Shown in pieces: positions 17,242-52,794 of a DNA stretch of 64,000 nt; the first letter of the stretch is position 1; every line of letters starts with the position of its first letter. The notes under the pieces are model-generated. The model was not told the DNA's origin, ran no database searches, and saw only the letters and a program-made list of their open reading frames with translations. Both the position numbers and the translations under genes were made by a program. Source of the DNA: a virus; IMG/VR virus record IMGVR_UViG_3300045988_135886. One strand, given 5' to 3'.

Positions 17242-18186
17242 ATGTTACAATTTGAATTTGATGGACATAATTCTAGTGAATACGGGATTATAATGACTGG
17301 AATCACAGACAATGATAATCTTGAAAGCAGATCTTTACAGTTAGGAGAAAAGAATAGATATAGAGCAAGAGAAAATCATTTCGGAGCAGTGTACGGTGAT
17401 AATTATAGCTTTACACTTAGCATCATGAAAAATCCTTGTCACAATACAAATGTGACACCTGAATTATCTAGTGGAATCATCACATATCCAGAAAAATGTA
17501 CTCCTATATTGAAAAATGGTATTATTACTTTCCCATTGGAGTACATTCCAGATGTTAAATTAGGTGTTATACAGATGAATGATACGGATTACCTTTCTTC
17601 AAGCAATATCCGTATTATTAATGGCTGGTTAACTTCTCCACAAACACCAAAATTATTTAAGATAATTGGTGGTGACTACTTCTACGAAGATATAGAGTTC
17701 TTTGCTACATTCACAGAAATTACTACTGATCATGTTGTGTTCCCATATGAAATGAATTTTACAGTCACTTGCGACAGTCCATATGGTTACACTCCTGAGA
17801 TTACGCATAATATCACCTCTTCTTCTACTCTTCCAAAAACTTATATAATTAACAACACTTCTGACTGTCATGAAGATTACATCTATCCTCTTATTAAAAT
17901 TTCCCCTAAAAGCCATGGCACTATTACAATCCAAAATGTAACAGACAATAACGGAACAATGAAAATAAATGCTTTAAAAGATGATGACTTTTATATTGAT
18001 TGCCAGCATTTAAAAATATATGACATTACTAATTCAATTATAAGTTTTGAAGATTTGGGTGTAAAAGATATAGATAATATATACTGGCTTAGATTGGCTT
18101 ACGGTGAAAATGAATTAAGATTCACTGGTGATGCTACATTTGAGCTTATTTATAGAGAACCAAGAAAGGTGGGTGCGTTTGGGTGA
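17242..18186 (+). CDS. distal tail protein (Dit)
   Basis: AGAGGTGA RBS. Lies directly after the TMP. N-terminus (LQFEFDGHNSSEYGIIMTGI) is typical of siphovirus Dit proteins. Confidence 0.65.
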   Translation: MLQFEFDGHNSSEYGIIMTGITDNDNLESRSLQLGEKNRYRARENHFGAVYGDNYSFTLSIMKNPCHNTNVTPELSSGIITYPEKCTPILKNGIITFPLEYIPDVKLGVIQMNDTDYLSSSNIRIINGWLTSPQTPKLFKIIGGDYFYEDIEFFATFTEITTDHVVFPYEMNFTVTCDSPYGYTPEITHNITSSSTLPKTYIINNTSDCHEDYIYPLIKISPKSHGTITIQNVTDNNGTMKINALKDDDFYIDCQHLKIYDITNSIISFEDLGVKDIDNIYWLRLAYGENELRFTGDATFELIYREPRKVGAFG

Positions 18187-33200: not shown

Positions 33201-34465
33201 TCAATGCAGTATATGAAACCTGCGAATATGTAGATGGATATTTTGATGGTAAGGATCTGGCCAATATGACACAGGTTGAGCTTTATACTCTTATGAAAAT
33301 GGGACTTGAAGCAAAATTATTATCATTAAAAGATACATTAGATTTCAAACTTGGTGTTGATTATAGCTATGGCGACATTGAAGAGCATGAAGTTATTTCA
33401 ACTGCGACTAAATTTGATGGAACAAACTATATTGACACCGGATTAAAGATCATGGAAAAAGACAGAGACTTTACGATTGCTATTGACTTTGAATTTGATT
33501 CAGGAAATAGTGTAAACTCCACTCTTGCTCAGTGTTTTCAGGGTGATGGTTCAAATGGATTCAGACTTTGGTATTCTCAGGAACCTCGTTTCTCATGGAA
33601 TACTGATAGTATAACTCCATCTGCTGGAACAAATCGAGAGATTATTGTATTCCGTCATGAAGCTGGAAGTCAGAAGCTTTATGTATACAATTCAAACATG
33701 ACTGGGAAAGAAGTGTCTTCTACTACTCTGAATGCGATTAGGATTCCAGAGCATAGTTCCACTCTCGTATTTGGATGTTCTAAAGCTGACGACGGAGCAT
33801 ATGAAAACTTTGCAAAAGGCACTATACATTGGGCTAAAGTATGGTACGCAGATCTTGGTGAAGAACAATGTATGGATATTGCTGCATGGATCCACGAAAT
33901 AATCCCTATGGAAGTGGCTAAGTTTAAAGGATATTATCTGTCTGACGTTGCTTCAAAGAGAGCTAACATTACATTTGTTGCTTCAAACCTGTTAGGTACT
34001 GAAAAGCCTTATAATAATAAGAGCACAAATGCAGGTGGATGGGCTGATTCTACATTAAATACATGGTTGAATACTCGTATGGTTAAGGCAATCTCTCCTT
34101 TATGGAAAGCTCTGATCAAACCTGTAAAAGTATACTCTTCTATTGGTAATAAATCAAATGATACATCCGTATCTAATTGCAGATTCTATGTTCCATCTCT
34201 GTACGAAATTGATCCTACTGCTACTTCTGAACCATATATTTCTGAAACAAATGCTCCTATTGCTTATTTCACAGATGATGATACCAGAAAGAAAGCAAAT
34301 TCTTCTACTCCTACGGAGTATAAATCTTACTGGACCAGATCTCCAAATGCTACAGTTGCAAACTGGCTGTATACAGTCAATGAAGCCGGTGGAACATATG
34401 GGTTCTCTTATCCAGGACAGAATTCTGGAATCTTACTTATGTTCTCAATTTCAAGTGAGGGGTAA
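27242..34465 (+). CDS. giant multidomain receptor-binding/adhesin protein (2407 aa)
   Basis: AAGGAG RBS. Contains an anchor-like N-terminus, a coiled coil, Ig-like repeats, a CotH-like segment (NRAKNVFPHW...YRFDLWAYDMDTQLG), an LRR block, two Listeria-Bacteroides-type repeats (YTFKGW, NLFKGW), a LamG-like segment, and a C-terminal domain ending YWTRSP. Confidence 0.6.
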   Translation: MSFKDSKIAAAANSAMTLSAELAVDTEEYTLCTDGRYEVYTKYQDNAYSTVDNLKNIAVDATQINIMQEENSQYMPFRIPRYWDGMDLMDMLIQIRYESVAEKKGKVATVINVASNNTYIRFGWLIDAAVTANAGDIIFEIMATGVNEKGNNYIWRTRPNGKFTVLQGLNYDGIIEPSEDWYTSFVNMILGHVAEAKQYADEAKASAASINVDDIKADVKTSVMNDLNGTVTESLKAYYTKTEVDTKVKELNTAISGIDSLKNLKVEYDNTTGNLVFKDGTEPIGEPITINSLANLIVEYSVVNGKGSLVFKDGETIIQTVELSSIEPSAEWRAALKQELEAEMDEKDTVISNRIGPLETAKTEIEKNVNANTAAVSEIKTTISNIEKKVESATTKSDEAKNAVDILKQNMTSYDTQFEGINTDITDVKAAIEEIKKNPAAAEYDVTYENSIFTFLKDGEIQKSFKIEGGGGSSSDTTTITIKRITNADAIFLLGSKAIIEYSFSSVDNTGDTTGAGTAVWKVGNTIVATNTAAQGNNSFDITEYLNVGANTIRLTITDSFGTLATKTWTVTIVEFKLESTFDDTLLYTNTDVVFRYTPYGNVNKTLHFILDGKDLGTVETQSSGRIMSYNIPKQEHGSHLLKVYMTATINNKEITSNTICKDIICVDPTNRTPIIGCAQQEFTAQQYQATSIKYVVYDPDHNPASVKLSIDGKVQSTLSVNRSAQIWSYKSSTEGKHNLTISCRKVTKILSVNITKLDIDVEPITANLAFDFNPVGKSNGDTDRLWTDKNNSAITLSVSDNFDWDNGGYQIDASGNQYFCVKAGTTAQINYNLFGKDPKQTGSEFKFVFKTQNVRNASATFLSCIDGTEGSDVGIKMDVHEAYVNTSTDSLYFPYSEEDIIEFEYNINTIDTKDTSATSIIMTYEDGVGGRPLIYDNSHRLHQYSPVPITIGSPDCDVLIYRMKAYSASLTDSDILANFIADARDSDEMIARYNRNQIYNDNNALTPDSVANACPNLRIIKIEAPHFTNDKKDFVKNTSMECIYKNGDPKLDNWKFINCFHAGQGTTSNEYGFAARNIDVICCADGVHQINSKIPLDPNYKTELVLGDGTKYEDGTGKISLTRNSVPNNWWNFKVNVASSNMATNALGQKRFNDFLPYESPAVRRDPKVKNSMEFVNCVIFIKESDPDITTHREFQDTDWHFYSLGNMGDSKKTDITRAYDPEDMKEFCIEISDNTLPNSAFQTGITNQDGTMKYPISKAEWKTGNTAYDALYNNWDGSFEFRYDCCGDSKDGSALTSDEAKKKIRTDNKQIWRDFYEFVITSSDKEFKDGLKDWCIQDAMLYFYLVTLRYSMIDNRAKNVFPHWAKHYITQEEATTMGDKAKYYTIDDDAAALHNGYRFDLWAYDMDTQLGINNSGELSFPYGKEDTDYKEEGNPSSGYVFNAAESVLWCRIRDVFTQELRNMYQSVDSNCWSDSHLINEYEAWQNQFPEELWRIHYERLYIRTYRAGTVRFLNEMMNGRGKYHLRQWERDQHIYMGTKFLHTDVKSDQIMFRCNTPKKVVVKPDYTLKIIPYSDMYISVLYGNSPETTQVRAKAGQEYQITTDLTNMDDTAILIYAASRIEALNDLSACYIHDNDFSKASKLKTLIIGNNTAGYQNTFMTSLNMGNNTLLETLDIRNCPNLTGSVNLSACENLINLYADGTIVTSVLFANHGKIAHASLPSSINTLTLKNLKDLTDLKVAGYDNLQTFVCQNSIVDALAILNAAINTLRTVTITGISWNLDDTTLLLKLSKLAGIDDNGATTEQSILTGSVHVPVVRQQEYKEFVGSEDEPGIWTDLVLTYDSIITQFKITFINDDESNTILDIQYVDKGGNAVDPTTREVNPIPIPTKKSTIKLDYTFKGWEGSMTGIFADRTITAVYDSKIREYTVKYVSKGLSLQESTAQYGSYVKYTGDTPVYTAEESAYKYNLFKGWDKSGFVDGNKTINAVYETCEYVDGYFDGKDLANMTQVELYTLMKMGLEAKLLSLKDTLDFKLGVDYSYGDIEEHEVISTATKFDGTNYIDTGLKIMEKDRDFTIAIDFEFDSGNSVNSTLAQCFQGDGSNGFRLWYSQEPRFSWNTDSITPSAGTNREIIVFRHEAGSQKLYVYNSNMTGKEVSSTTLNAIRIPEHSSTLVFGCSKADDGAYENFAKGTIHWAKVWYADLGEEQCMDIAAWIHEIIPMEVAKFKGYYLSDVASKRANITFVASNLLGTEKPYNNKSTNAGGWADSTLNTWLNTRMVKAISPLWKALIKPVKVYSSIGNKSNDTSVSNCRFYVPSLYEIDPTATSEPYISETNAPIAYFTDDDTRKKANSSTPTEYKSYWTRSPNATVANWLYTVNEAGGTYGFSYPGQNSGILLMFSISSEG

Positions 34466-40288: not shown

Positions 40289-40831
40289 ATGGCAATTTAT
40301 AAAGGTGAACAATGTCTTGCCGGAGTTGGTAAGAATGCAACTATTAAAATTGGTACTGCTAAAACAGGTACTTCGGCTGCGGTAACTAATTCTGGTACTG
40401 ATACAGATGCTATATTGAATTTTACATTACCTAAAGGTGATCAGGGAGTTGGAATTTCAAGTGTTATCCCTCATTATCTTGCAAGTCCTAAATCGCAGGG
40501 AGTGACCAGATCAACTACTGGATGGGCGACTTCCGCTCAAGTTATGACATCTACAAATAAATATTTGTGGTGTTATCATGAATTTGTTTTGACAAACAAT
40601 AATCATTTGTATACAGATGCAACCGTTATAGGTGTTTATGGAGATAAAGGTGATCCGGGTACAACTGATTACAATGGATTGAAGAATAAACCGGTCGTTA
40701 ATGGAGCTGTAACTGCTTATCAGTCAGATATTATGAAATCTCAGTTGAGAAATGTGACATTCTCTACTGAAGAACCTAAGACAACTGATGGTAAACCTGG
40801 TGATATGTGGGTGGTGTATGGCGATGAGTAA
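40289..40831 (+). CDS. fibre adaptor-like protein
   Basis: AAGGAGG RBS. Short collagen-like GDKGDPG. C-terminus GKPGDMWVVYGDE, which overlaps the start of the next gene. Confidence 0.6.
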   Translation: MAIYKGEQCLAGVGKNATIKIGTAKTGTSAAVTNSGTDTDAILNFTLPKGDQGVGISSVIPHYLASPKSQGVTRSTTGWATSAQVMTSTNKYLWCYHEFVLTNNNHLYTDATVIGVYGDKGDPGTTDYNGLKNKPVVNGAVTAYQSDIMKSQLRNVTFSTEEPKTTDGKPGDMWVVYGDE

Positions 40832-42590
40832 TATTAAAACTGGAGATATATTGAACTTTGATTATACTGGTGCTGTTCAGAGCGTAACATTGAAACCTGG
40901 AAAATATGTGCTTGAGTGTTGGGGTGCTCAAGGTGGAAATGGATGTACGGGAAATTCATATAAAGGCGGTGCCGGAGGATATTCCAAAGGTACTCTCACA
41001 CTAGCCAAAACAGAAACTTTATACATATATGTTGGTGGACAAGGAGTTAGCGCTGCAGCTTCTGGCAATGGAAATATTCGAGAAGGTGGATTCAACGGTG
41101 GTGGATCTGGACGTGATTGGGGTAGTACTGGTAATGGCGGTGGCGGAGGTGGTGGCGCCTCTGATATTCGAATTATAACTGATAACTTCTATGCTCGTGT
41201 TATAGTCGCCGGCGCTGGTGGTGGAGCTTCTGATAATGGAGCAGGCGGTGCTGGCGGCGGCACTTCTGGGATTTCATCATCCTCTTCCGCTGGAACAGCA
41301 ACTGGAGGCAGCGGTTTTGGTCAAGCGGCGGCATCAAGTTACACTTCAGGTGAATGTGGTGGCGGTGGCGGTGGCTGGTATGGAGGTTATGGCGGATCCT
41401 CAGAAAATTATTCTGGCGGTGGTGGATCAGGTTATGTCTACACTTCTTCTTCTGCTTCTAACTACCCTTCTGGATGCCTACTAAATTCTACTTATTATCT
41501 TTCTAATGCTCAAACCATTGCAGGAAATCAAACTTTTAAATCGCCTACTAATACAAATGAAACCGGTCACTCTGGTAACGGCTATTGTCGAATTACTGTT
41601 ATTGAATGCAGTAATACAGCACTATATGTCAGAATAAACAATTCTATGAAAAAAGCTACTGCTTTCTATTTCAAATTAAATAACAACAAAATGTACGGTG
41701 TTGGTTCTGCTAATTATAATGGTTCTGTTATGAATTTTGATTATACTGGTTCGGTTCAAACTGCTACATTGACTCCTGGTACATATACAATAGAATGCTG
41801 GGGTGGCCAAGGAGGAAGTTATAATAGTTACATAGGCGGATATGGTGGTTACTCCAAAGGCACAATTACTCTTACTAAAGCAACTACTGTTTATATATCT
41901 GTTGGTGGAGCTGGATCTTCCTCTTCTACTGCTGCAGGATTCAATGGTGGAGGAACTGGTATTTCTTCTGGTAGAGGTGGTGGAGGAGCTACAGATGTTC
42001 GTATAGGTCAAAATTCTCTATATTCAAGAGTTATCGTAGCCGGAGGTGGCGGCGGAGCTGGTGTAACAAGTGCCAATGCTAATCCTTGTGGTTGTGGTGG
42101 TGGAGAATATGGTGGAGATGGCTATTATAATAACACTACCGGTTCTTATACTACTGGTCAAAATAGATCTGGCGGTAGTGCCTCACAAACTGCAGGTGGT
42201 ATAACTTGGAGTACAGGCACCCAGGCTACTTTTGGTCAAGGCGGAAATGCTTCCGGCTACTCTTGTGGTGGCGGCGGAGGCGGCTGGTATGGAGGCGGCG
42301 GAGCCTATGACAATGATTCTGACTCTGATGGACGTTGGGGTGGAGGAGGATCAGGATATGTTTATACCTCTTCTACAGCTAAAAATTACCCTAACGGATG
42401 CCTACTAAATTCTACTTATTATCTTTCTAATGCTCAAACCATCGCAGGAAACACTTCTTTTACTTCTCCTACAGGATCAGCAGAAACTGGTCACACAGGC
42501 AGTGGATTCTGCAGAATTACAAATTTGAACCCAACACAATATGGATTATACGTAAAAACGAACTCTGGTTGGAAACACATAGATTTATAA
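40818..42590 (+). CDS. glycine-rich domain protein (two tandem Gly-rich modules)
   Basis: Two copies of NFDYTG.VQ..TL.PG.Y..ECWG.QGG...GG.GGYS.GT.TL...(I/V)VAG(A/G)GGG...GGGSGYVYTS...ETGH.G.G.CRIT. Confidence 0.7.
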   Translation: MAMSNIKTGDILNFDYTGAVQSVTLKPGKYVLECWGAQGGNGCTGNSYKGGAGGYSKGTLTLAKTETLYIYVGGQGVSAAASGNGNIREGGFNGGGSGRDWGSTGNGGGGGGGASDIRIITDNFYARVIVAGAGGGASDNGAGGAGGGTSGISSSSSAGTATGGSGFGQAAASSYTSGECGGGGGGWYGGYGGSSENYSGGGGSGYVYTSSSASNYPSGCLLNSTYYLSNAQTIAGNQTFKSPTNTNETGHSGNGYCRITVIECSNTALYVRINNSMKKATAFYFKLNNNKMYGVGSANYNGSVMNFDYTGSVQTATLTPGTYTIECWGGQGGSYNSYIGGYGGYSKGTITLTKATTVYISVGGAGSSSSTAAGFNGGGTGISSGRGGGGATDVRIGQNSLYSRVIVAGGGGGAGVTSANANPCGCGGGEYGGDGYYNNTTGSYTTGQNRSGGSASQTAGGITWSTGTQATFGQGGNASGYSCGGGGGGWYGGGGAYDNDSDSDGRWGGGGSGYVYTSSTAKNYPNGCLLNSTYYLSNAQTIAGNTSFTSPTGSAETGHTGSGFCRITNLNPTQYGLYVKTNSGWKHIDL

Positions 42591-42605: not shown

Positions 42606-42881
42606 ATGCCGATTATATTTCACGGAACAGGTAGTGGCGGCTCTGCTAAAAAACTAAAAACCGCACGAACTATTAATGGTACGAATTTTGATGGTACAGC
42701 TAATATTACTACTGCTAATTGGGGAACAACAAGAACCGTTACTGTAGGAAATACAAGTAAATCTGTAAATGGATCTGGAAACGTAAGTTGGTCGTTAGCT
42801 GAAATAGGTATTCATCTTTCAACAACGGAACCTGCAGCTAGTGACGGAAAGAATGGAGATATTTGGATTACTTATGAATAA
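42606..42881 (+). CDS. fibre adaptor-like protein
   Basis: AAGGAGGG RBS. Fibre repeat KLKTARTINGTNFDGTANIT. C-terminus GKNGDIWITYE parallels the C-terminus of the 40289 gene. Confidence 0.6.
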   Translation: MPIIFHGTGSGGSAKKLKTARTINGTNFDGTANITTANWGTTRTVTVGNTSKSVNGSGNVSWSLAEIGIHLSTTEPAASDGKNGDIWITYE

Positions 42882-42905
42882 AAGACTGAAAGGAAGGTGA
42901 GGCTT

Positions 42906-45347
42906 ATGGCTTGTTCTGGTGGATGTGGAACTTCTTGTTCTACTGACTGCACTCATTCATCATCTGGTGGATGTGGTGGTTCTTGTGGTGGTTCTTGCTC
43001 TACTAACTGTACTGGTGGATGTTCTGGATATTGTGATGGAACTTGTAAGGGAGGTTCAGGAAGTACTTGTTCTGACTGTACTGCCAAATGTGCTAATGAC
43101 TGTACCGGAGCTTGTACAAATGCTTGTGTAACCGGATGCACTGGCTGTGGGAACAACTGTGATGGAGACTGTACAAGCGCCTGTGCTCAAAGGTGCTCTA
43201 ATGATTGCAATGCTGCATGTACTGCTACTTGTGCTTATGATTGCGAACATACTTGCACTGCTTCTTGTGCCAACGACTGCACCAGTTGTGGTGGATCTTG
43301 CTCAAGTAATTGCTCAGGAAATTGTGATTCCGGTTGTTATACTGGTTGTTCCGGTTGTGATTCTACCTGTTCTGGATCCTGCACTGGTACTTGTAATACT
43401 ACTTGCACTACCACTTGTGCCAATGACTGCACTGGCGGGTGCAAAGGAACCTGTACAGGTGGATGTGGTGGTTCTTGTGATAATTCATGCGGCTTTTCTT
43501 GTGAAGCTTCATGTGATAACAATTGTACTGCTGTTTGTTCTGTATCTTCTGTGTATGGTGGAAACTCAGAGAAGAGTGTATTGAATTTTGCTTATACAGG
43601 TAAAGCTCAATCTGTAACCCTTGAGCCTGGAAAATATGTTCTTGAATGCTGGGGAGCACAGGGAGGTTATCGTTCTAATTCTAGTTATGGTGGAAAAGGT
43701 GGCTATTCTACAGGGACTTTAACATTGACTCAAAAAACTACTATATACATATATGTCGGTGGATCTGGAAATTCTGTTACATCAGCATCAAATTCAATCT
43801 ATCCCGGAGGTTTCAATGGTGGTGGATATAGATACAATTATAAAGGTGGTGGTGGCGCTACTGATATTCGTATTGGAAGTGCTTCTTTATATGCCCGTGT
43901 TATCGTTGCAGGTGGCGGTGGTTCTGATGGTAGTCCTAATTATAGTGGTGGGTATGCAGGTGGTGTATCTGGTACTAGGGGAAATTTTGGATGTGGTTCA
44001 TATGGATATGGTGGATCTCAAACTGCTTCATATTCATCTTTAAGTGCTATTAATTCACAAGGCACCACAAATTCTTCTTCTAACTGTGCTGCTGGTTTTG
44101 GTTTCGGTGGTTTTGGATGTTATTACGCTTCAGGTTACGGTGGAGCTGGCGGCGGAGGATGGTACGGTGGACAAGGTACTTATCCTGATGGTTCTGGAGA
44201 TGATGATGGCGGTGGCGGAGGTGGATCTGGTTACGTTTATACTTCCTCTTCTGCTTCTAACTATCCTCAAGGCTGTCTCCTAAATTCATCTTACTATCTT
44301 TCTGATGCTTCTAATTTATCTGGCAATGAATCTTTCAAATCTCCTTCTGGTGCTACAGAAACTGGTCATTCTGATAATGGCTATTGTAGGATTACCTGTT
44401 ATATCAAAAAGAAAACTCTACATTGTAAAATGAACAATGAAATTAAAAAAGCAGCTCCAGTATTTATGAAAATGAACAATAAAATTTATGATGCTGGCGC
44501 TAATGCTGTAATGGATTTTGCTTATACAGGAACAGCTCAAGCTATATCACTTCCAAGAGGAAAATATATTATAGAATGCTGGGGCGCTCAAGGCGGTTCA
44601 TATAGTAGTTATTATGGTGGTGCTGGAGGATATTCTGTCGGAACCATAACTCTAACTAAAAATTCTACGGATTTATATATTTATGTTGGTGGACAACCAG
44701 AAGCTACAACTTCAACAGGTGAAACACCTGGTGGATTTAACGGAGGAGGAAAAGGTTGTTCAAGAACTTATAATTATAGTAGTTATGGACAAGGTGGCGG
44801 CGGTGCAACCGATGTTCGTATAGGAAAAAATGATCTTTATGCTAGAGTTATTGTCGCTGGTGGCGGCGGAGGTTCATCATCAGAAAATTCGCTTACAACA
44901 AAATATGGCGGTGGAACTACTGGTGGTTCTTCTGCTTCTGGATATGGAGCTACACAAACTGCTGCAGGTACAAATGGTTCGTTTGGTCAAGGTGGTTCTG
45001 CAACAACTTCTGGAACTAATTATAATTATGGTTCCGGCGGTGGTGGAGGTGGATGGTATGGTGGTGGTGCATGTTCTGATTATAGTGACAGCACTAACTA
45101 CCAAGGCTATAATGGCGGAGGTTCAGGATATGTTTACACTTCAGCTACTGCTGCTAATTATCCAAGTGGTAATTATGTAAATTCTTCTTACTACCTTACC
45201 GATGCGCAAACTATAGCAGGAAATCAATCATTTAAATCACCTAATGGAACAAATGAAACAGGCCATACCGGAAATGGTTTCTGTCGTATCACACGTAAAT
45301 CAGGAAAAATATTTGTAAAACAAAACGGTTCATGGATCAAAGTATAA
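42906..45347 (+). CDS. CXXX-repeat / glycine-rich chimeric fibre protein
   Basis: ATG at 42906 after an AGGAAGGTGA RBS. The first ~210 aa carry 52 Cys, almost all spaced CxxxC. Two Gly-rich modules follow, as in the 40818 gene. Confidence 0.75.
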   Translation: MACSGGCGTSCSTDCTHSSSGGCGGSCGGSCSTNCTGGCSGYCDGTCKGGSGSTCSDCTAKCANDCTGACTNACVTGCTGCGNNCDGDCTSACAQRCSNDCNAACTATCAYDCEHTCTASCANDCTSCGGSCSSNCSGNCDSGCYTGCSGCDSTCSGSCTGTCNTTCTTTCANDCTGGCKGTCTGGCGGSCDNSCGFSCEASCDNNCTAVCSVSSVYGGNSEKSVLNFAYTGKAQSVTLEPGKYVLECWGAQGGYRSNSSYGGKGGYSTGTLTLTQKTTIYIYVGGSGNSVTSASNSIYPGGFNGGGYRYNYKGGGGATDIRIGSASLYARVIVAGGGGSDGSPNYSGGYAGGVSGTRGNFGCGSYGYGGSQTASYSSLSAINSQGTTNSSSNCAAGFGFGGFGCYYASGYGGAGGGGWYGGQGTYPDGSGDDDGGGGGGSGYVYTSSSASNYPQGCLLNSSYYLSDASNLSGNESFKSPSGATETGHSDNGYCRITCYIKKKTLHCKMNNEIKKAAPVFMKMNNKIYDAGANAVMDFAYTGTAQAISLPRGKYIIECWGAQGGSYSSYYGGAGGYSVGTITLTKNSTDLYIYVGGQPEATTSTGETPGGFNGGGKGCSRTYNYSSYGQGGGGATDVRIGKNDLYARVIVAGGGGGSSSENSLTTKYGGGTTGGSSASGYGATQTAAGTNGSFGQGGSATTSGTNYNYGSGGGGGGWYGGGACSDYSDSTNYQGYNGGGSGYVYTSATAANYPSGNYVNSSYYLTDAQTIAGNQSFKSPNGTNETGHTGNGFCRITRKSGKIFVKQNGSWIKV
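42912..43538 (+). repeat. CXXX-repeat coding region (protein-level period 4)
   Basis: 45 of the 51 Cys-to-Cys intervals are exactly CxxxC. The intervening residues are G/S/T/D/N/A-rich and variable, so this is not a simple DNA tandem repeat. Confidence 0.9.
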
Positions 45348-45385
45348 CACTTTGGTCCATATTTAAATTACAAGGAGGAATTGTT

Positions 45386-45784
45386 ATGAAACTTATTTTG
45401 AAAGACGGACAAGAATTAGTTATTACTCGTGCTAACGATACATATTCATATGAAGGATATAAAGATGGGTTGGGAAATGATATGAACAAAAATATTGTAG
45501 CTACTATTTCTATCTTCAATTCTGATAAATCTTTAAACACTATTAAGGATATGATTACTGATGACAATAGAACAGGTTTTAAAATTATTTATGGGAATAC
45601 CCAGAAAGATTATACTGGAATGAAAATTGAAAGTATTTCAGAAGAAATCTCCAATGAAAGAAGTGTTATTAATATCTCATTAGCTACAGATAAAACCATA
45701 GCTCCTACTGAGACCACTGGAACAACAACAGAAAAAACTAAAGAAGAAACTAAAGAAAAAACGGAAACAGCTTCTGATAAATAA
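45386..45784 (+). CDS. hypothetical protein
   Basis: AAGGAGG RBS before the ATG at 45386. T/E/K-rich tail. Confidence 0.65.
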   Translation: MKLILKDGQELVITRANDTYSYEGYKDGLGNDMNKNIVATISIFNSDKSLNTIKDMITDDNRTGFKIIYGNTQKDYTGMKIESISEEISNERSVINISLATDKTIAPTETTGTTTEKTKEETKEKTETASDK

Positions 45785-45809
45785 TTAAGAATGAAAGGAA
45801 TATAAGGAT

Positions 45810-46148
45810 ATGAGAAAAATAATCGTAAAGATTGATAAAGAAAAAGCTACAGAGCTTGAAAGAGTTAATTTTGAATTAAACTTCGTAAAAGACATTGTAC
45901 AGAGAGTTATTGAATCACATCCAAGCGATTTAGAACTCATCAATGGAGATACTCTTATGTCTTACAATAAACGTGGTGCAGAATTACAGAGAAAGTATGC
46001 TGCTCTTGCAAATGAGATGGAAAAGGAATACATCCCAGAATACCTCGAAGGTCATCAGTATAGTTGGATTATTCCAAATAATTCTGATGAAATGACTATT
46101 ACTATTAAATGTAATTGTGAGATTCCAGAATTAGAGGAAATAGCATGA
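45810..46148 (+). CDS. small protein translationally coupled to the radical SAM gene (candidate accessory/partner protein)
   Basis: ATGA overlap with the 46145 gene. 112 aa, helical and acidic. C-terminus is ...TITIKCNCEIPELEEIA. Confidence 0.6.
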   Translation: MRKIIVKIDKEKATELERVNFELNFVKDIVQRVIESHPSDLELINGDTLMSYNKRGAELQRKYAALANEMEKEYIPEYLEGHQYSWIIPNNSDEMTITIKCNCEIPELEEIA

Positions 46149-48544
46149 AAAGGACAGAACAATATTCGGATCAGATAGCTAGACTTTATCCATCTAAGAA
46201 GGTAAAAACCGATGACGGACAAAGAATATTAACACAGAGTATCACTTTTCAAGTAACTGATGATTGTAACCTTGCATGTAGTTATTGCCTTAGTGGAGAT
46301 ACAAAAATCCGTATGGCAGATTATTCGTTAAAATCAATCAAAGATATTCAGTTGGGAGATAAAGTGTTAGGATTTGAGGAATATCCTCAAAAAGGGAAAC
46401 AGACTAAGGTAATTGTTTCAGACGTAGAGAAATTATATTGTCATGAAGCATCAACTATCGAGTTAACATTTAATGACGGACAAATTCTTAATATTACTCC
46501 TAATCATAAAATTTTAGTTCGAAGAAATTCTTATGATAATAGATATGACTATGTTGAAGCTGGTAAACTAAATATAGGCAGTGAAGTGTATTACCTCCCT
46601 ATTATTGATTCAAAATTACATATAGAAGAGCCGATACATGACATAAATTATAAAATAGGATACCTTATTGCAATGATTAAAGGTGACGGTTCATTAAAAC
46701 ATTATAATCGAAAGTCTGATGGTTGTGATGTATTCAAGTTTAGAATAGCTGTAAAAGATACGGAAATAATCGAACGTTGTAAGAAGTATCTTGATGATTT
46801 AGATATTCCGGTTTATTTGAAACCGTATAATGTATCTAAAAAATACGATATATGGAACAATGCTATTTTTGCAAATACAAGATACGTATATAATAAATTA
46901 AATCAATTAATTAGCGATAATTTCTCTCAAAATACTTCTCTTTCATATTATCAAGGATATCTTGCAGGATTTTACGATGCTGAAGGTCATATTTCAAAAG
47001 AACGTGTTATCAGAATTTGCAATACAGATATTAAGATGATTAATGAGGCTACCTTAGGATTGGATTTGTTAAAGATTCCATACATAATCGAAGTTGATGC
47101 AAAAGGAACTGTGAATAAACCATTAAAATACAATATTCGAATAACTGATAACTTAAATTCTATATCTACATATCGTTTTATCAAATCTGTTCATCCAGCA
47201 ATAAAAAGAAAATCTTTTGATAATTTCCTTAATTATTCTCCATTAAAAAAGACTAAAATTATAGATATAAAAAAAAATCCTATTAGTACTACGGTATATA
47301 ACATAGGAACTTCATCTCGTACTTATATCGCAAACACTATTGCTGTACATAATTGTTACCAAGGACATAAAGGAAAAAATCGAATGTCGTTTGAAACAGC
47401 TAAGAAATTCTTTGATTTAGTTGTATCAGGTGAAAAAGGTTTTAAATCTTATATCAATCCAGAGAAATCTCCTGGATTGGTTGTAGATTTCATTGGAGGA
47501 GAACCTTTTCTTGAGATAGAGCTTATAGATCAAATCTGTACTTATATTATGGATAAACTCATAGAGTTGGATCATCCTTGGGCCATGAAAACTATGTTCT
47601 CTATTTGTTCAAATGGTGTTTTATACAGGGACGAAAAAGTACAAGCATTTCTTCGTAAGTGGGCCAATAGATTATCTTTCTCAGTTACTATTGATGGGAA
47701 TAAAGAATTACATGATTCCTGTCGAGTATTCCCAGATGGCAGTCCAAGTTATGACATAGCTGTCGATGCTGCGTCTGATTGGATGAAACGTGGAAATCAT
47801 ATGGGAAGCAAGATCACAATTGCTCCAGGTAATATCAGCTTTCTATACGATGCTATTAAGCATATGGTCGATCTTGGATATGATGAAATCAATGCCAATT
47901 GTGTATATGAAAAGGGTTGGACACCTGTACATGCAACTGTTCTTTACGATCAAATGAAACGCATATCTGATTATTTCTTGGAACAGAATTTTGATTTTGA
48001 ACGTGATTTCTTCTGTTCCCTTTATAATGAAGATTTCTTTCATCCTAAAGATCCTGATGATTTACAAAGCTGGTGCGGAGGCGTTGGTAATTCAATGATT
48101 GCTTGCGATCCTCAAGGTCGCATATTTCCATGTATCAGATATATGGAATCTTCTCTTAATGGAGAGCAAGAACCGTACTCTATTGGTGATGTAGATAATG
48201 GTATAGGATGCACAGAATGTTATAAATGCAGAATTAATTGTATGGCAAAAATAGATAGAAGGACACAGAGTACAGATGAATGTTTCTATTGTCCTATAGC
48301 TGCAGGATGTTCTAATTGTTCTGGTTATGATTATCAAGTGAATGGTACTCCTGACTCAAAAGCTACTTATATATGTGTTATGCATAAAGCTCGTGCTCTT
48401 GGAAACCTGTATTTCTGGAATAAATATTATAGAAAAAATAATATGAATAAACGAATGAAAAACTATGTGCCAGATGAATGGGCGCTTGAGATTATTTCTG
48501 AATCAGAACTTAATATGTTGAAAGAACTTGAAAGAGAGGATTAA
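46145..48544 (+). CDS. radical SAM/SPASM-domain maturase-like enzyme, interrupted by an intein
   Basis: CNLACSY[C...intein...N]C restores CX3CX2C after splicing. GGEP motif (FIGGEPFLE). C-terminal Cys-rich SPASM-like region (CGGVGNSMIACD...CIRY...CTECYKCRINC...CFYCPIAAGCSNCSG). Confidence 0.75.
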   Translation: MKRTEQYSDQIARLYPSKKVKTDDGQRILTQSITFQVTDDCNLACSYCLSGDTKIRMADYSLKSIKDIQLGDKVLGFEEYPQKGKQTKVIVSDVEKLYCHEASTIELTFNDGQILNITPNHKILVRRNSYDNRYDYVEAGKLNIGSEVYYLPIIDSKLHIEEPIHDINYKIGYLIAMIKGDGSLKHYNRKSDGCDVFKFRIAVKDTEIIERCKKYLDDLDIPVYLKPYNVSKKYDIWNNAIFANTRYVYNKLNQLISDNFSQNTSLSYYQGYLAGFYDAEGHISKERVIRICNTDIKMINEATLGLDLLKIPYIIEVDAKGTVNKPLKYNIRITDNLNSISTYRFIKSVHPAIKRKSFDNFLNYSPLKKTKIIDIKKNPISTTVYNIGTSSRTYIANTIAVHNCYQGHKGKNRMSFETAKKFFDLVVSGEKGFKSYINPEKSPGLVVDFIGGEPFLEIELIDQICTYIMDKLIELDHPWAMKTMFSICSNGVLYRDEKVQAFLRKWANRLSFSVTIDGNKELHDSCRVFPDGSPSYDIAVDAASDWMKRGNHMGSKITIAPGNISFLYDAIKHMVDLGYDEINANCVYEKGWTPVHATVLYDQMKRISDYFLEQNFDFERDFFCSLYNEDFFHPKDPDDLQSWCGGVGNSMIACDPQGRIFPCIRYMESSLNGEQEPYSIGDVDNGIGCTECYKCRINCMAKIDRRTQSTDECFYCPIAAGCSNCSGYDYQVNGTPDSKATYICVMHKARALGNLYFWNKYYRKNNMNKRMKNYVPDEWALEIISESELNMLKELERED
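46286..47353 (+). mobile_element. intein (356 aa) with a LAGLIDADG homing endonuclease domain
   Basis: N-terminal splice block CLSGDTKIRM. Two LAGLIDADG motifs (GYLIAMIKGDGSL and GYLAGFYDAEGHI). C-terminal block TIAVHN followed by the +1 Cys. Confidence 0.85.
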
Positions 48545-48560
48545 AAGCCTCTCTTTTTTA
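48533..48560 (+). terminator. terminator hairpin
   Basis: agagagg-attaaaag-cctctct followed by tttttatt. It overlaps the stop codon. Confidence 0.55.
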
Positions 48561-48584
48561 TTGACTAAAAGGAGGCTTGATATT

Positions 48585-50255
48585 ATGGCAGAAATTAAAG
48601 GAATTGATGTTTCCAGATGGAATGGAAACATCGACTGGAAAACTGTTGCTAGTTATGGAATGGGCTTCGCTATCCTAAGAATTACAGAAAAAGGAAATAT
48701 TGTTGATAGCACATTCGAACCTAATTATAAAGGCTGTATTGAGAATAAAATTCCTGTTGGAGTCTATAAATACAGCTATGCTACTACTATTGCTCAAATT
48801 AAAAATGAAGCAAATGTAGTTATTAAAACATTGAATAAAAGAAAACTGGATTATCCAGTGTTTCTTGATATAGAGGATAAATGTCAGGAGAATTTATCTG
48901 ACAATTTAATGATGAAAATGATCGAAGCGTTTAGAGCTATTATTGTCAAAGCTGGATATAAATTTGGTATTTACTGTGGTTATTCTTGGTATCAGTATCA
49001 ACTACCAGAAGGTGCTAAAAAGTATGATTGTTGGGTTGCCCGATATCCTAATAATGATACCGGTGAATTACAGGAAAGATTAAGAGTTCCTGCTTCTACT
49101 GGTGTTATTGGATGGCAATATTCTAGTAAGGCAACCATTCCTGGAATTCCAACAAAAACTGATCGAAGTGTATTCTATAAAGACTATTCTAAATCTTCTA
49201 CTACTTCTACAGACTCTCCCAAACCAACAACTACACAAGGAAGTGATACTATGAATAAAGATAAAGCTATTGATGCTCTTATTGCTTGCGCTGAAAATGA
49301 GGTTGGATATTTAGAGAAGAAATCTAATTCTCAGCTTGATGATAAAACTGCAAATGCAGGTTACAATAACTACACTAAATACTGGAGAGACGTATATCCT
49401 CAGTATCAGGCACAGGCTTGGTGTGCAGCGTTTGTGAGTTGGTGCATGATGAAAACATTCGGTCTTGATGTAGCTAAAAAACTCCTTAAACATTGGCCTT
49501 ATGTATACTGTCCTACTCTTGGAAATCTCTTTACAAAGTATGCAAATCCACAGCGAGGAGACATTGTGATCTTCTATCGTAACGGTACTTTTGCACATAC
49601 AGGAATTGTCACAAAAGTTGAAGGTGATAAGTTTTATACTATTGAAGGGAATACTTCAGCTGGCTCTACTGTTGTTCCAAATGGTGGAGGAGTTTTTGCT
49701 AAATCTTATTACAATTCTAATCTTCCAGGCACTAAATTCTGTCGTCCAGACTATTCTATTGTCACATCTATTTTAACATCTACTGCACCTGTACAGCCAT
49801 CTTATACTGCATGGGTAGGTTCTTGTACAGCTAATGGAACAGATGTATTCTCAGGCGCTACAGGAGCTTCTAAGTTAAGTACATATCCTAAACTTAATGC
49901 AGGTAATCTTGTGGATATCATCGGTGAATCTGGTACAAGATATCAGGTTCGTATCGCTGCAAAATATATAGGGTATGTAGAAAAATCTAACATTAAAAAT
50001 CCTAATACTCCTGCTGCAACAACTACAAAAAAATATCCATTTGTAGGAAAAGTAACTGCAAGTAAATTGAATGTTCGCAAAAAACCCGGTACTGAACATC
50101 CGGTACTTCCAGAGTATCCGATGTTAAATAAAGACAATCTTATTAATGTCCTCGGAGTTACAAAAGATACTAAAGGTGACAGATGGTACAAAGTATCAAT
50201 CACTAAAAAAGAATATGTTGGCTATGTATCAGCCAAATATATTACTAAGGCATAA
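48585..50255 (+). CDS. modular endolysin: GH25 muramidase + CHAP + two SH3 domains
   Basis: AAGGAGG RBS before the ATG at 48585. GIDVSRWNGNIDW...VFLDIED matches GH25. CAAFVSWC...HTGIV...EGNTS matches CHAP. Two SH3_3-like repeats lie at the C-terminus. Confidence 0.8.
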   Translation: MAEIKGIDVSRWNGNIDWKTVASYGMGFAILRITEKGNIVDSTFEPNYKGCIENKIPVGVYKYSYATTIAQIKNEANVVIKTLNKRKLDYPVFLDIEDKCQENLSDNLMMKMIEAFRAIIVKAGYKFGIYCGYSWYQYQLPEGAKKYDCWVARYPNNDTGELQERLRVPASTGVIGWQYSSKATIPGIPTKTDRSVFYKDYSKSSTTSTDSPKPTTTQGSDTMNKDKAIDALIACAENEVGYLEKKSNSQLDDKTANAGYNNYTKYWRDVYPQYQAQAWCAAFVSWCMMKTFGLDVAKKLLKHWPYVYCPTLGNLFTKYANPQRGDIVIFYRNGTFAHTGIVTKVEGDKFYTIEGNTSAGSTVVPNGGGVFAKSYYNSNLPGTKFCRPDYSIVTSILTSTAPVQPSYTAWVGSCTANGTDVFSGATGASKLSTYPKLNAGNLVDIIGESGTRYQVRIAAKYIGYVEKSNIKNPNTPAATTTKKYPFVGKVTASKLNVRKKPGTEHPVLPEYPMLNKDNLINVLGVTKDTKGDRWYKVSITKKEYVGYVSAKYITKA

Positions 50256-50815: not shown

Positions 50816-50820
50816 TTTAT

Positions 50821-50849
50821 GGGTAGTCAAGCATTATACTTGGCTACCC
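50821..50849. terminator. bidirectional terminator
   Basis: gggtagtcaag-cattata-cttggctaccc followed by attttttta. Lies between convergent genes. Confidence 0.7.
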
Positions 50850-50855
50850 ATTTTT

Positions 50856-51463: not shown

Positions 51464-51600
51464 ATAATTATTGCTTCATCCTTATCCTTATGCTATAATT
51501 TACTTAACACATAATTCATATTATCATAATTTTGGAAAAAAGTAAAGTTTTTTATTTTGTAAGTAAAATTAGTGTAATTTTGTACAACGGAGGGATGTAT

Positions 51601-52794
51601 ATGGCAAGAAGGGAAAAAGGTTCAGGATCATGGGATACTGTAACAAAGAATGACATTACATACTATAGGTACCGTAAGAAATATAATGGTATGACAAGCC
51701 GGAAAGAATTTGTAGGAAGGACAAAAGCTGATGTAAAACGCAAGATACAAGAATTTGAAGCTAAGAGTATGAGGGTTAACCAAAAAGATTATCGTAAGAT
51801 GACTCTTGGGGAATGTATAGATAATATCCTGCAGACGTTGGAGCCGACTTTCAAGACAAATAACTATGCTACTCTTCAGTCTACAAATCGCTGCTATATT
51901 AAAACTAATCCGATTGCTGATGTTCAGATGGCTGCTATAGACAAGATTGTCATTCAAACATACTATACAAATATGTCGAAGAAATATTCTGAGAGCACTG
52001 TTAAAAAGACACGCACTCTTTTCAATATTGTTTTCGACTATCTTGTATCCTGTAACATTATCACAGAGAATCCTGCAAAAGGGATTAAGATGCCGCATAA
52101 GTCAAAATATGCAGTACAGAAGAAAGAACACTCTTTCTTATCTTTAGAAGAAGCTGAGAAGTTTTATAAGACGGCTCTTATGAAAGCAAATTCTGCTTTG
52201 CCAGGCGTAAAGACAGGTGATTACATCTATGGACGTAATGCTAGGTTCTGTCTGTTAGTTCTTTATACTGGTATGCGTATAGGAGAAGCTTATGCTCTCA
52301 CATGGAAAGATATAGATTTTAAGAATAATACCATTAACATAGATAAGACAATGGAGCGTATCAAAGTAGATAGCAAATATCAGTGGCTCATAGATACACC
52401 AAAACGTCCTAAGTCAATCAGAGTTATTCCTCTGGCAAATCGTGCAAAGGAACAGCTGCTCTGGCTTAAAACTGTGTCTCCTGGACTGGAAGCATCCGGA
52501 GATGACCATATATTCGTAACTAAGAACAATATTCCACCATCACAGTCAACTCTTACCAGGACGCTTAAAGCGATCCTCAAGAGAGCCGGCATCGAATCTA
52601 ATGGTTTCGGCCTACATGATCTTAGGCATTCGTTCGGATCTATGCTGCTGCAGAAAGGATGGGAACAGAACCAGCCTGTAGATATTAAGGTAATATCAGA
52701 GATACTTGGACATGAAGATGTTTCCACAACTTATAACATATATATGCATATCATGAATAAACATAAATCAGAAGTCATAAATTTACTTGATTAA
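51601..52794 (+). CDS. int: tyrosine recombinase / phage integrase
   Basis: GGAGGG RBS before the ATG at 51601. Motifs GMRIGEAYALTWKDIDF, HDLRHSFGS and LGHEDVSTTYNIYMH (the R..HxxR..Y catalytic pattern). Confidence 0.85.
   Translation: MARREKGSGSWDTVTKNDITYYRYRKKYNGMTSRKEFVGRTKADVKRKIQEFEAKSMRVNQKDYRKMTLGECIDNILQTLEPTFKTNNYATLQSTNRCYIKTNPIADVQMAAIDKIVIQTYYTNMSKKYSESTVKKTRTLFNIVFDYLVSCNIITENPAKGIKMPHKSKYAVQKKEHSFLSLEEAEKFYKTALMKANSALPGVKTGDYIYGRNARFCLLVLYTGMRIGEAYALTWKDIDFKNNTINIDKTMERIKVDSKYQWLIDTPKRPKSIRVIPLANRAKEQLLWLKTVSPGLEASGDDHIFVTKNNIPPSQSTLTRTLKAILKRAGIESNGFGLHDLRHSFGSMLLQKGWEQNQPVDIKVISEILGHEDVSTTYNIYMHIMNKHKSEVINLLD

Follow-up and report, generated by a model that had tools for sequence, protein, structure and literature searches.

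A 64,000-nt stretch of virus DNA (IMGVR_UViG_3300045988_135886, hereafter the window), which we attribute to a large phage of gut bacteria, encodes within positions 42906–48544 what is likely a phage-borne, reduced CXXX-repeat radical SAM/SPASM system whose substrate is a tail-fibre-module protein and not a short peptide. The feature is real and represents a variant of a known but uncharacterised system—the NCBIfam CXXX system, comprising the TIGR04115 maturase, the TIGR04114/04117/04118 targets, and TIGR04119, is bioinformatically defined, and in the literature searched we found no biochemical study of it, no biochemical evidence for any TIGR04115 member, and no account of the system in phages. 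A paper that looked relevant (PMC12801897) dealt with an unrelated gene of a cyanophage. The anatomy of the locus is set out in Table 1.

Table 1. Features of the CXXX-repeat cassette and its surroundings, with positions in the window
Feature	Position	Strand	Remark
Paralog, 590 aa, two glycine-rich domains (GRD), without Cys module	40818..42590	+	Pfam E 3.4e-95
91-aa protein	42606..42881	+	Resembles C-terminal end of a tail-fibre shaft; directly 5' of the Cys-GRD gene
CXXX-repeat and two-GRD protein, 813 aa	42906..45347	+	Proposed substrate, fibre-module protein
CXXX-repeat module, residues 3–211, 52 Cys	42912..43538	+	Spacing counts, shuffle test
Two ALK_LTK_GRD (PF12810) domains, residues ~224–813	43575..45344	+	Pfam E 4.5e-97
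132-aa conserved cassette protein	45386..45784	+	No family match
112-aa conserved partner protein	45810..46148	+	Translationally coupled to the radical SAM gene
Radical SAM/SPASM maturase, 799-aa precursor, 443 aa after splicing	46145..48544	+	TIGR04115
Intein, 356 aa, LAGLIDADG homing endonuclease	46286..47353	+	Pfam
Endolysin (GH25 + CHAP + SH3)	48528..50255	+	Marks the end of the tail-fibre module
Terminator-like hairpin, first strong one downstream	50819..50851	+	

The repeat module of the 42906 gene is defined by the spacing of its cysteines. Translated from the ATG at 42906, the 51 intervals between its 52 cysteines comprise 45 of four residues, exactly the number that a first-pass annotation made from the sequence alone had counted, with four of three and two of eight, and when the same 209 residues were shuffled 100,000 times, CxxxC occurred 12.5 times on average and 25 times at most, as against the 45 observed. 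That annotation had also placed the periodicity at the level of the protein and not of a DNA tandem repeat, which held: Tandem Repeats Finder recovered only 12- and 21-nt arrays of 2–4 copies with scores ≤55, so the periodicity lies in the protein, and an origin of the repeat in recent tandem duplication of DNA is ruled out. Across 33 unique homologs, Cys columns were 99.8% conserved compared with 89% for other columns. Aligned to its counterparts in two related loci (L036 and L037), the module matched 47 of 48 and 49 of 50 cysteines (~98%) at a non-Cys identity of 33–36%; the repeat keeps a strict four-residue register, with indels that mostly comprise entire CXXX units. The cysteines thus hold their positions and register while the residues between them diverge, which shows selection on Cys spacing. 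All three inter-Cys positions hold mixtures of S, T, G, A, N, and D, and none of these residues is conserved as an acceptor (Asp accounts for 5–9% at each position and is never fixed); the sequence itself does not reveal the cross-link partner. Alternative-frame and antisense open reading frames across 42919–43659 were rejected as genes, being by-products of the biased composition.

Recognition of the module by existing target models was weak. The window's Cys module fell below the NCBIfam target cut-offs, scoring 19.7 bits on TIGR04117 (cut-off 50 bits) with no match reported on TIGR04114 (cut-off 20 bits). A free-standing homolog at another locus (L077) passes TIGR04114 at 34.3 bits, and homologs carry a precomputed match to Pfam PF27846 (tSAM_targ_Cxxx_rpt), which is faint on one protein (P0012). 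Clustering at 90% identity places the 813-aa protein among 3204 member sequences from public assemblies.

The family of the enzyme and the integrity of its cofactor motifs are well established. The spliced product scores 523.7 bits on TIGR04115 ("radical SAM peptide maturase, CXXX-repeat target family"; cut-off 350), covering positions 1–359 of the 359-position model, and without splicing the score is 504.6 bits, split over two stretches. Membership of another radical SAM family would have refuted the initial proposal, and this was not borne out: the spliced enzyme reaches 169.9 bits on PapB (NF047865, cut-off 340), 100.7 on the SCIFF maturase model, 97.4 on QhpD (TIGR03906), only 44.6 and 40.6 on sulfatase maturase models, and 35.7 on GrrM/OscB against a cut-off of 310. 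The CX3CX2C motif and SPASM-like C-terminus claimed for the gene were both upheld, the motif reading CNLACSYC and the C-terminus being Cys-rich; in 17 orthologs the CX3CX2C cysteines (C41/C45/C48) and a seven-Cys SPASM set (C288, C307, C357, C360, C366, C369, and C388) are invariant. Of the solved structures, CteB (5WGG) comes nearest (E 1.3e-19), the alignment covering radical SAM core and SPASM domain alike. Because the CteB alignment begins at residue 91, the region of CteB N-terminal of that residue—which we take to be its RRE peptide-binding domain—has no counterpart in the window enzyme, and no PqqD/RRE Pfam match was found in the cassette proteins, which leaves the presence of an RRE unsupported. 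Among GenBank phages, tblastn with the enzyme returned only two metagenomic fecal contigs above 30% identity, and megablast of 42606–48544 returned no match; radical SAM genes of jumbo phages at ~24% identity were set aside as members of other families.

The maturase gene is interrupted by an intein of Hint + LAGLIDADG type (residues 48–403 of the precursor; Pfam Hint, LAGLIDADG_3, and Intein_splicing), with the expected sequence features all present: CLSGDT at its start, TPNH (block B), the two LAGLIDADG motifs LIAMIKGDGS and LAGFYDAEGH, and AVHN followed by C at its end. The third Cys of CX3CX2C is the C-extein +1 residue. Intein-less alleles on other contigs are colinear with, and 100% identical to, the predicted spliced product, confirming the boundaries; that splicing restores the radical SAM motif is inferred from sequence, as is the splicing activity itself. 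Different alleles carry two unrelated inteins at adjacent positions within CX3CX2C. The full-length product scores 69.1 bits on NF038136, short of its cut-off of 700; this family (Rv2578c) is alike in that a Hint/LAGLIDADG intein interrupts a radical SAM gene, although the radical SAM family differs.

We next consider the association of enzyme and repeat, which is shown by ~110 related loci spanning 34–100% enzyme identity. Among IMG/VR loci with enough flank, a CXXX-repeat ORF adjoins the enzyme in all 34 of type A and all 42 of type B; such an ORF also adjoins it in 21 of the 22 bacterial-genome loci and in L001, L002, L105, and L107–L111. In the window it lies two genes upstream. Overall, a CXXX-repeat target stands beside the enzyme at ~105 of ~107 informative loci, so that the predicted co-occurrence across related phage and prophage loci held in essentially all of them. 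The exception is a close relative (L106) that retains an intact enzyme cassette with no CXXX ORF in 18.8 kb; no Cys module lies within 10 kb, and the enzyme sits beside a protein with three GRDs. By composition-corrected BLAST, 37/38 type A loci carried GRDs and no type B or genome locus did (0/42 and 0/22; initial flags on short CXXX proteins of the genome loci were low-complexity artefacts that vanished under this correction), and the enzyme's constant partner is therefore the repeat.

The repeat module itself moves among three forms—free-standing, fused to an N-terminal domain, and fused to GRDs. In the window's lineage it is joined to differing glycine-rich domains; in other lineages it is free-standing or follows a conserved N-terminal domain of ~110 aa (whose profile gave no PDB match and no meaningful Pfam match), always within baseplate or tail-fibre modules. 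Since GRDs accompany it only in the window's own phage lineage, the fusion seen here is derived, and the earlier claim that the target had been grafted onto a fibre protein held as far as the grafting is concerned. Free-standing CXXX proteins of type B are 220–270 aa long, and substrates of the relatives range over 160–430 aa, compared with 813 aa when fused. Blautia and other Clostridia harbour the type B relatives, whose genes sit within the baseplate/fibre run and not at its margin; prophages of type A or B include ones in Blautia wexlerae and Anaerolentibacter hominis CSJ-1 (L084 and L087).

Gene order shows that the cassette belongs to a fibre module. In the window, tape measure, Dit, a giant receptor-binding protein of PblB type, and fibre-motif proteins are followed by these genes and then the endolysin, and no hairpin comparable to that at 50819..50851 separates the fibre, cassette, and lysis genes. 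The 91-aa product matches PHROG tail-fibre families phrog_21722 (3e-12) and phrog_26292, and its counterpart in L108 is the C-terminal 90 residues of a 285-aa fibre-like protein. The cassette of L048 lies between baseplate wedge or tail proteins and a tail-fibre protein, and the same arrangement is suggested in L098 from reading translated ORFs only (without a family-library scan of that locus); placement in fibre modules thus recurs in unrelated phage backbones. Gene maps of the relatives revealed no peptidase or exporter genes in the cassette. The two Gly-rich modules reported for the 42906 product, and for a paralog at 40818 devoid of the Cys module, were confirmed as PF12810 domains. The corresponding PHROGs (1589, 5811, and 7388) are of unknown function, and the fibre protein has no match by sequence in the PDB, so virion membership rests on gene position only. 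Position in the gene run and neighbouring fibre-motif proteins favour a tail-fibre assignment, which remains inferred in the absence of virion data.

Two small conserved proteins complete the cassette. The coupling of a small protein to the radical SAM gene was confirmed by an ATGA overlap between the end of the 45810 gene and the maturase start codon. In every IMG/VR locus a homolog of this 112-aa protein immediately precedes the enzyme (38–99% identity). The protein has 225 representative clusters, some of which are tandem duplications; H37, P38, H82, W86, C101, and C103 are invariant. Its AF2 model (pLDDT 90.4) comprises a strand, a long helical hairpin, and a beta-hairpin, for which Foldseek found only generic helical hairpins (best PDB E 0.68), and no NCBIfam, Pfam, or PHROG model matched. 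The identification of this product with a canonical small accessory protein of the CXXX system failed, as no homology supports it; in that system the usual partner is a second maturase of SPASM-like type, TIGR04119. Neither the cassette proteins of the window nor their type B homologs matched TIGR04119, and it was absent from the gene maps of relatives; it is present in L002, a bacterial-type locus, at 235.3 bits. The other small gene starts at 45386 (RBS AGGAGGA), not at 45332, and its 132-aa product likewise has no family match. Homologs accompany the enzyme, before or after it, in type A and most type B loci. The protein has a beta-rich core and a disordered Thr/Glu/Lys tail (AF2 mean pLDDT 73.7, most of the core near 90), and its Foldseek matches to Hcp, tail-tube, and Dit folds are weak (best E 5e-3, none ≤1e-3).

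Compared with the NCBIfam CXXX system, then, the window is alike in that its enzyme passes TIGR04115 and adjoins a target with Cys at every fourth position. It differs in lacking TIGR04119 and having two unrelated small conserved proteins instead, in that the phage targets are 160–813 aa proteins of tail modules and not short peptides (~50–175 aa, for example the signal-bearing one of L002), and in that its module is fused to glycine-rich domains and lies below the target-model cut-offs. Among characterised enzymes, PapB is the second-best family match and shares the SPASM architecture and the many repeated Cys sites per substrate (PMC10177961; PMC12373016). In PapB and Tte1186, the substrate Cys is bound at an auxiliary cluster and S–C bonds are formed (PMC10177961), and in freyrasin PapB joins Cys to the beta-carbon of Asp in repeated CX3D motifs. 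Freyrasin has six such sites, as against 52 in the window protein. The window enzyme does not qualify as a PapB, however: its score is under half the cut-off, there is no fixed CX3D/E acceptor and no conserved Asp in the substrate, and that substrate is a large phage protein. CteB and the SCIFF maturases supply the nearest structure but possess the N-terminal region that the window enzyme lacks. The radical SAM/SPASM enzyme QhpD puts several Cys thioethers on QhpC, the gamma subunit of quinohemoprotein amine dehydrogenase, which remains a structural subunit and is not a secreted natural product; that case differs in involving three cross-links on a small subunit of a bacterial enzyme, with no repeat architecture and no phage context. 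In HK97, autocatalytic Lys–Asn cross-linking builds an isopeptide chainmail in the capsid. The likeness is that a virus particle is stabilised by covalent bonds within and between proteins, whereas here we propose a dedicated radical enzyme acting on a tail-fibre-module protein.

In the mechanism that we propose, fibre, cassette, and lysis genes would be expressed from one strand late in infection of a strictly anaerobic clostridial host. The maturase precursor would remove its intein, restoring the CX3CX2C site for the SAM-binding cluster, and the enzyme would proceed through the 52 cysteines of the module at the N-terminus of the 813-aa protein. The chemistry is taken by analogy from its closest characterised relatives (PapB, QhpD, and the SCIFF maturases CteB and Tte1186): each Cys thiol would be presented to an auxiliary Fe–S cluster and a 5'-deoxyadenosyl radical would take an H atom from a neighbouring residue, giving a thioether. 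The predicted product is a densely stapled rod of small rings, resistant to reduction and proteases, on two glycine-rich and probably host-binding domains. The enzyme itself lacks an RRE-type domain at its N-terminus; handling of the substrate would most likely fall to the coupled 112-aa protein, a role that is inferred. That the Cys module is the substrate is also an inference, and so is the chemistry, which is favoured by analogy: after TIGR04115, the characterised families with the highest scores form thioethers. Post-translational cross-linking and virion incorporation, both suggested in the first-pass annotation, are still inference.

Several observations weigh against this reading. Fifty-two radical turnovers per polypeptide would be far beyond any characterised maturase, TIGR04119 is missing, the target cut-offs are failed, and L106 keeps the enzyme without the module. 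A bolder version—that tailed phages of anaerobic gut Clostridia use an enzyme of their own to staple dozens of thioethers into a tail-fibre- or baseplate-associated protein—is possible, though on balance we lean slightly against it. The same reserve, a little short of even confidence, applies to its particulars: up to 52 staples here and up to ~80 in relatives, giving protease resistance with no need for disulfides. Radical-SAM cross-linking of a virus structural protein is not described in any source that we searched.

One alternative, which we consider unlikely, is that the Cys module is a metal-binding, Fe–S-binding, or disulfide domain without enzymatic modification and that the enzyme serves some other need of the phage. 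In its favour, 25% Cys with small polar spacers resembles a metallothionein-like composition, no acceptor is conserved, and the enzyme persists in L106 without the module. Against it, the enzyme family is curated as CXXX-repeat-specific, and the enzyme adjoins repeats at identities from 34% to 100%, in different phage backbones and a bacterial-type locus. A register as strict as the one described above is, moreover, not typical of metallothioneins.

It is similarly improbable that the cassette is a prophage-carried RiPP or bacteriocin moron, in which a modified CXXX precursor would be released (for example at lysis) against competing bacteria and would not be part of the virion. Supporting this, the system type is classed with RiPP maturases, the cassette lies at the fibre/lysis junction, and type B loci encode free-standing CXXX proteins of a few hundred residues; fibre/lysis junctions are common sites of moron insertion. 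On the other side, there is no leader peptidase, exporter, or immunity gene nearby, the substrates are large even where unfused, the type B genes lie within the baseplate/fibre run, the in-frame fusion to fibre-module domains has no recognisable cleavage motif, and the 132-aa neighbour weakly resembles a tail-tube/Hcp fold.

We also think it doubtful that the enzyme modifies the module by a chemistry other than thioether formation, such as formylglycine generation as in anaerobic sulfatase maturases, or another Cys-derived product. SPASM enzymes catalyse varied reactions, no acceptor is conserved, and weak sulfatase maturase matches do exist, but these score far below the nearest characterised families, all of which (PapB, SCIFF maturase, QhpD, and CteB) form Cys thioethers. 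Finally, the idea that the glycine-rich domain is the real substrate, as for GrrM/OscB maturases of glycine-rich repeat peptides, draws on the three-GRD neighbour of the enzyme in L106 and is very unlikely, being largely refuted by the lack of any GRD in the type B and genome loci that carry the enzyme and by the poor GrrM/OscB score.

The phage-borne CXXX system bears on several fields. For intein biology, two unrelated inteins on neighbouring codons of a catalytic motif are a neat example of essential-site homing. For enzymology, the uncharacterised TIGR04115 family gains a concrete and abundant test case, with a protein-sized, 52-site substrate and a minimal gene set, in which two small proteins join the enzyme and both an RRE domain and a second maturase are lacking, and a portable module stapled in vivo could be useful in protein engineering. 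If the bolder version is true, this would be the first virus structural protein matured by a radical SAM enzyme, and no other substrate of a RiPP-type maturase would come close to it in extent of processing. For phage biology, it would represent a new route to virion hardening, in which enzymatic thioether stapling would suit an anaerobic, reducing cytoplasm where disulfides are not available.

The Cys-repeat/maturase feature is real, and the system to which it belongs is a member of a known, bioinformatically defined kind. On retranslation, the first-pass annotation's counts for the 813-aa protein held: 52 Cys fall within residues 3-211, and 45 of the 51 intervals span four residues (CxxxC), with four spanning three and two spanning eight. 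Across 100,000 permutations of residues 3-211, CxxxC pairs averaged 12.5 and never exceeded 25, against the 45 observed. Because Tandem Repeats Finder returned only short, low-scoring arrays from the underlying DNA (12- and 21-nt units, 2-4 copies, scores ≤55), the four-residue period is a property of the protein; the earlier claim that it is not a DNA tandem repeat held. The spacers consist almost exclusively of S, T, G, A, N, and D in the window and 63 unique related modules, and no fixed residue was found at any of the three spacer positions in this set. In the profile search, the window module scored too low to pass the NCBIfam target models.

Coordinates of features in the window
Feature	Position	Strand	Details
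Giant tail-region ORF	8567-17179		2870 aa
Giant tail-region ORF	18183-24536		2117 aa; PblB-type / Peptidase_S74 chaperone end
Giant tail-region ORF	27242-34465		2407 aa; DUF6273 protein
Small fibre-shaft-like proteins	40289-40831 and 42606-42881		one before each glycine-rich domain (GRD) gene
Paralog of 813-aa protein	40818-42590		same two GRDs, no Cys module
CXXX-repeat + 2 x GRD protein gene	42906-45347	+	813 aa; starts MACSGGCGTSC
Two PF12810 ALK_LTK_GRD domains	residues ~224-813 of 813-aa protein		Pfam E 4.5e-97
132-aa protein gene	45386-45784		between fibre gene and enzyme; good RBS
112-aa protein gene	45810-46148		3' end forms ATGA overlap with enzyme start codon
Radical SAM/SPASM maturase gene	46145-48544		799-aa precursor; 443 aa without intein
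Intein	46286-47353 (enzyme residues 48-403)		CLSGDT...AVHN, then Cys; Hint + LAGLIDADG_3 matches
Tyrosine integrase	51532-52794		Phage_integrase E 2.5e-29; between lysis genes and opposite-strand early genes

The intein-free enzyme carries the motif CNLACSYC, whose third Cys is supplied by the C-extein as its +1 residue. The intein is missing from most close IMG/VR relatives, and its boundaries are confirmed because several such alleles are 100% identical to the predicted spliced product. This product scored 523.7 bits (cut-off 350) against NCBIfam TIGR04115, the 'radical SAM peptide maturase, CXXX-repeat target family' model, and well under the respective cut-offs of the models for PapB (169.9 bits), SCIFF maturase (100.7), QhpD (97.4), and anaerobic sulfatase maturase (44.6). 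The proposed maturase identity thus held, and assignment to a sulfatase maturase or other such family was not supported. Ten Cys—the triad C41/C45/C48 and seven of SPASM type—are invariant in 17 orthologs (34-100% identity). Among solved structures, CteB comes closest (5WGG, E 1.3e-19), but the alignment begins at CteB residue 91, and the earlier part, which is the RRE peptide-binding domain of CteB, has no counterpart in the window enzyme. As a separate observation, different alleles carry two unrelated inteins (33% identical) at neighbouring codons of this CX3CX2C motif, that of the window preceding the third Cys (CNLACSY/C...HN/CYQGH) and that of the related loci L031/L035 (about 8846-11242) the second (CNLA/CFVAGT...HN/CSYCYQGH). 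Free-standing homing-endonuclease-like genes (GIY-YIG/NUMOD1) adjoin radical SAM and lysin genes in relatives L108 (8194-9207) and L106 (17160-18395), adding to the intein traffic around the enzyme.

With the spliced enzyme as query, an IMG/VR scan yielded 188 relatives, from which 80 loci were retained, and a scan of species-representative genomes yielded 22 loci, exclusively from Clostridia (among them Blautia, Anaerosporobacter, Anaerolentibacter hominis, Oscillospiraceae, and Anaerobacterium chartisolvens). A CXXX-repeat ORF adjoins the enzyme in every sufficiently flanked locus from both scans; the expected co-occurrence held, with a single exception in the close relative L106. Type A loci (enzyme ≥81% identical) encode, like the window, a fusion of the repeat module with two GRDs, though the GRDs themselves differ among these phages, the L037 pair resembling the window paralog at 40818 that lacks the Cys module. 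Type B loci (enzyme 67-70% identical, contigs mostly 28-45 kb) encode two proteins: one of ~170 aa, comprising a conserved ~110-aa N-terminal domain and 17-19 Cys, and a free-standing one of 220-270 aa whose MACSxGCGTSC start is homologous to the window module. In genome loci and in L107, a contig with the same phage backbone as the window, one 160-430-aa protein combines the N-terminal domain with CXXX repeats (up to 83 Cys).

This ~110-aa domain precedes the repeats in most phages of the clade, terminates in a conserved SSSCRGxCTGLCxGxC, and occurs in 63 ORFs, among them one in the distant locus L001 (enzyme 34% identical); examples are L048 8132-8473, L087 8516-8845, and L001 8556-8885, with 60 further ORFs. 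It is absent from the window and all type A loci, no Pfam or PDB match was found for it, and it could conceivably serve recognition or attachment. L107 is ordered 3 x GRD fibre, 166-aa protein, N-terminal-domain + CXXX protein, 112-aa homolog, enzyme, and 132-aa homolog. Biased composition yields long spurious ORFs in other frames, both in the window (42919-43659) and in L107, where the public gene call (13497-14234) is in the wrong frame and misses the real 357-aa ORF (13130-14212; N-terminal domain + CXXX repeats, 65 Cys).

Cys columns show 99.8% conservation across 33 unique modules of type A, versus 89% for the remaining columns. Comparison with the divergent modules of L036 and L037 aligns 47/48 and 49/50 Cys, although the non-Cys positions share just 33-36% identity, and differences in module length are mostly of whole CXXX units. 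The cluster of fusion proteins has 3204 members; 3 x GRD proteins without a Cys module form clusters of 1-26.

The canonical system, as in the bacterial-type contig L002, combines a target (TIGR04117, 43.5 bits, slightly below the cut-off of 50) with TIGR04115 (630 bits) and a second maturase, TIGR04119 (235 bits), whereas neither the window nor its relatives encode TIGR04119. Because this canonical partner is missing, the parallel drawn by the first-pass annotation to a known small accessory protein finds no support in homology. Even so, conservation marks the 112-aa protein as a genuine partner: its family comprises 225 representative clusters at 50% identity, and its model (pLDDT 90.4) shows a strand, a long helical hairpin, and a beta-hairpin, with no PDB counterpart and no Pfam, NCBIfam, or PHROG match found. 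A few homologs carry tandem domain duplications in one polypeptide (P0349, P0335, P0323, P0367), perhaps a hint that a dimer is the functional unit. In the AlphaFold model of the 132-aa protein, a beta-rich core is predicted with confidence and the tail is disordered; its Foldseek matches, all weak (best E 5e-3), point consistently toward the Hcp / tail-tube / Dit fold. A hairpin (45332-45360; 12-bp stem, weak T tail) directly follows the fibre gene stop, and a promoter-like site matching 11/12 positions lies inside the gene's 3' end (45085-45113); together they might separate cassette expression from that of the fibre gene.

The window covers late genes of a large phage of siphovirus-like type, and contigs related to it span 85-177 kb. 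Its order runs from tape measure through the 2870-aa giant protein, Dit, the 2117-aa protein, and the 2407-aa DUF6273 protein to several proteins with tail-fibre N-terminal motifs, two GRD genes, and the cassette, and ends with an endolysin (GH25 + CHAP + SH3), the integrase—absent from the corresponding place in the syntenic relative L105—and opposite-strand nucleotide-metabolism genes. The first strong terminator lies at 50819-50851, and none separates the fibre genes, the cassette, and the lysis genes from one another. The cassette of the type B locus L048 is flanked by baseplate wedge / tail proteins on one side and by a tail-fibre protein on the other. Both small fibre-shaft-like proteins share a terminal ...DGKxGDxWxxY motif, and in L108 the 91-aa one forms the C-terminus of a 285-aa fibre-like protein; they may act as adaptors through which the GRD proteins dock to the tail. 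The PHROG families of the GRDs have no known function, and a sequence search of the PDB returned no relative of the 813-aa protein; its status as a fibre rests on gene position alone.

We favor, as the most likely though inferred reading, processing of the fibre-module protein's Cys module by the phage enzyme. The analogy of PapB, Tte1186, CteB, and QhpD suggests that Cys thioethers would be formed there. In PapB and Tte1186, an auxiliary cluster binds the substrate Cys, and H-atom abstraction is followed by S-C bond formation (PMC10177961). PapB can attach Cys at the alpha- or beta-carbon of a wide variety of residues, as substrate fit dictates (PMC12373016); this tolerance makes the missing conserved acceptor less troublesome. 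A ladder of small thioether rings might give a rigid segment resistant to reduction and proteases, one that could be produced in an anaerobic cytoplasm where disulfides are unavailable.

Besides the module's low target-model scores and the purely positional basis of the fibre assignment, counter-evidence comes from the close relative L106, where the two GRDs of the window continue into a third and there is no Cys module. In L106 10001-14828, the 132-aa, 112-aa, and radical SAM genes are intact beside this 3 x GRD fibre, and no CXXX ORF lies within 18.8 kb, leaving the maturase apparently orphaned. Three rivals appear unlikely: that the module binds metal without enzymatic modification, that the enzyme performs another Cys chemistry on it, and that it is a released RiPP product, no peptidase or exporter gene having been found with the cassette. 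That the GRD is the substrate is very unlikely: by composition-corrected BLAST it occurs in 37/38 type A, 0/42 type B, and 0/22 genome loci, which leaves the repeat as the enzyme's invariant partner. Since the GRD is confined to type A loci, the window fusion is a derived state, and the description of the module as grafted onto a fibre protein held.

Enzymatic processing of the module, as originally interpreted, thus passes every computational test run, while the chemistry and virion incorporation remain inferred. In the literature searched, we found no treatment of TIGR04115 or of a phage CXXX system. What is new in the window system is its phage tail-module context, its modular substrate of protein scale, and its partner proteins.
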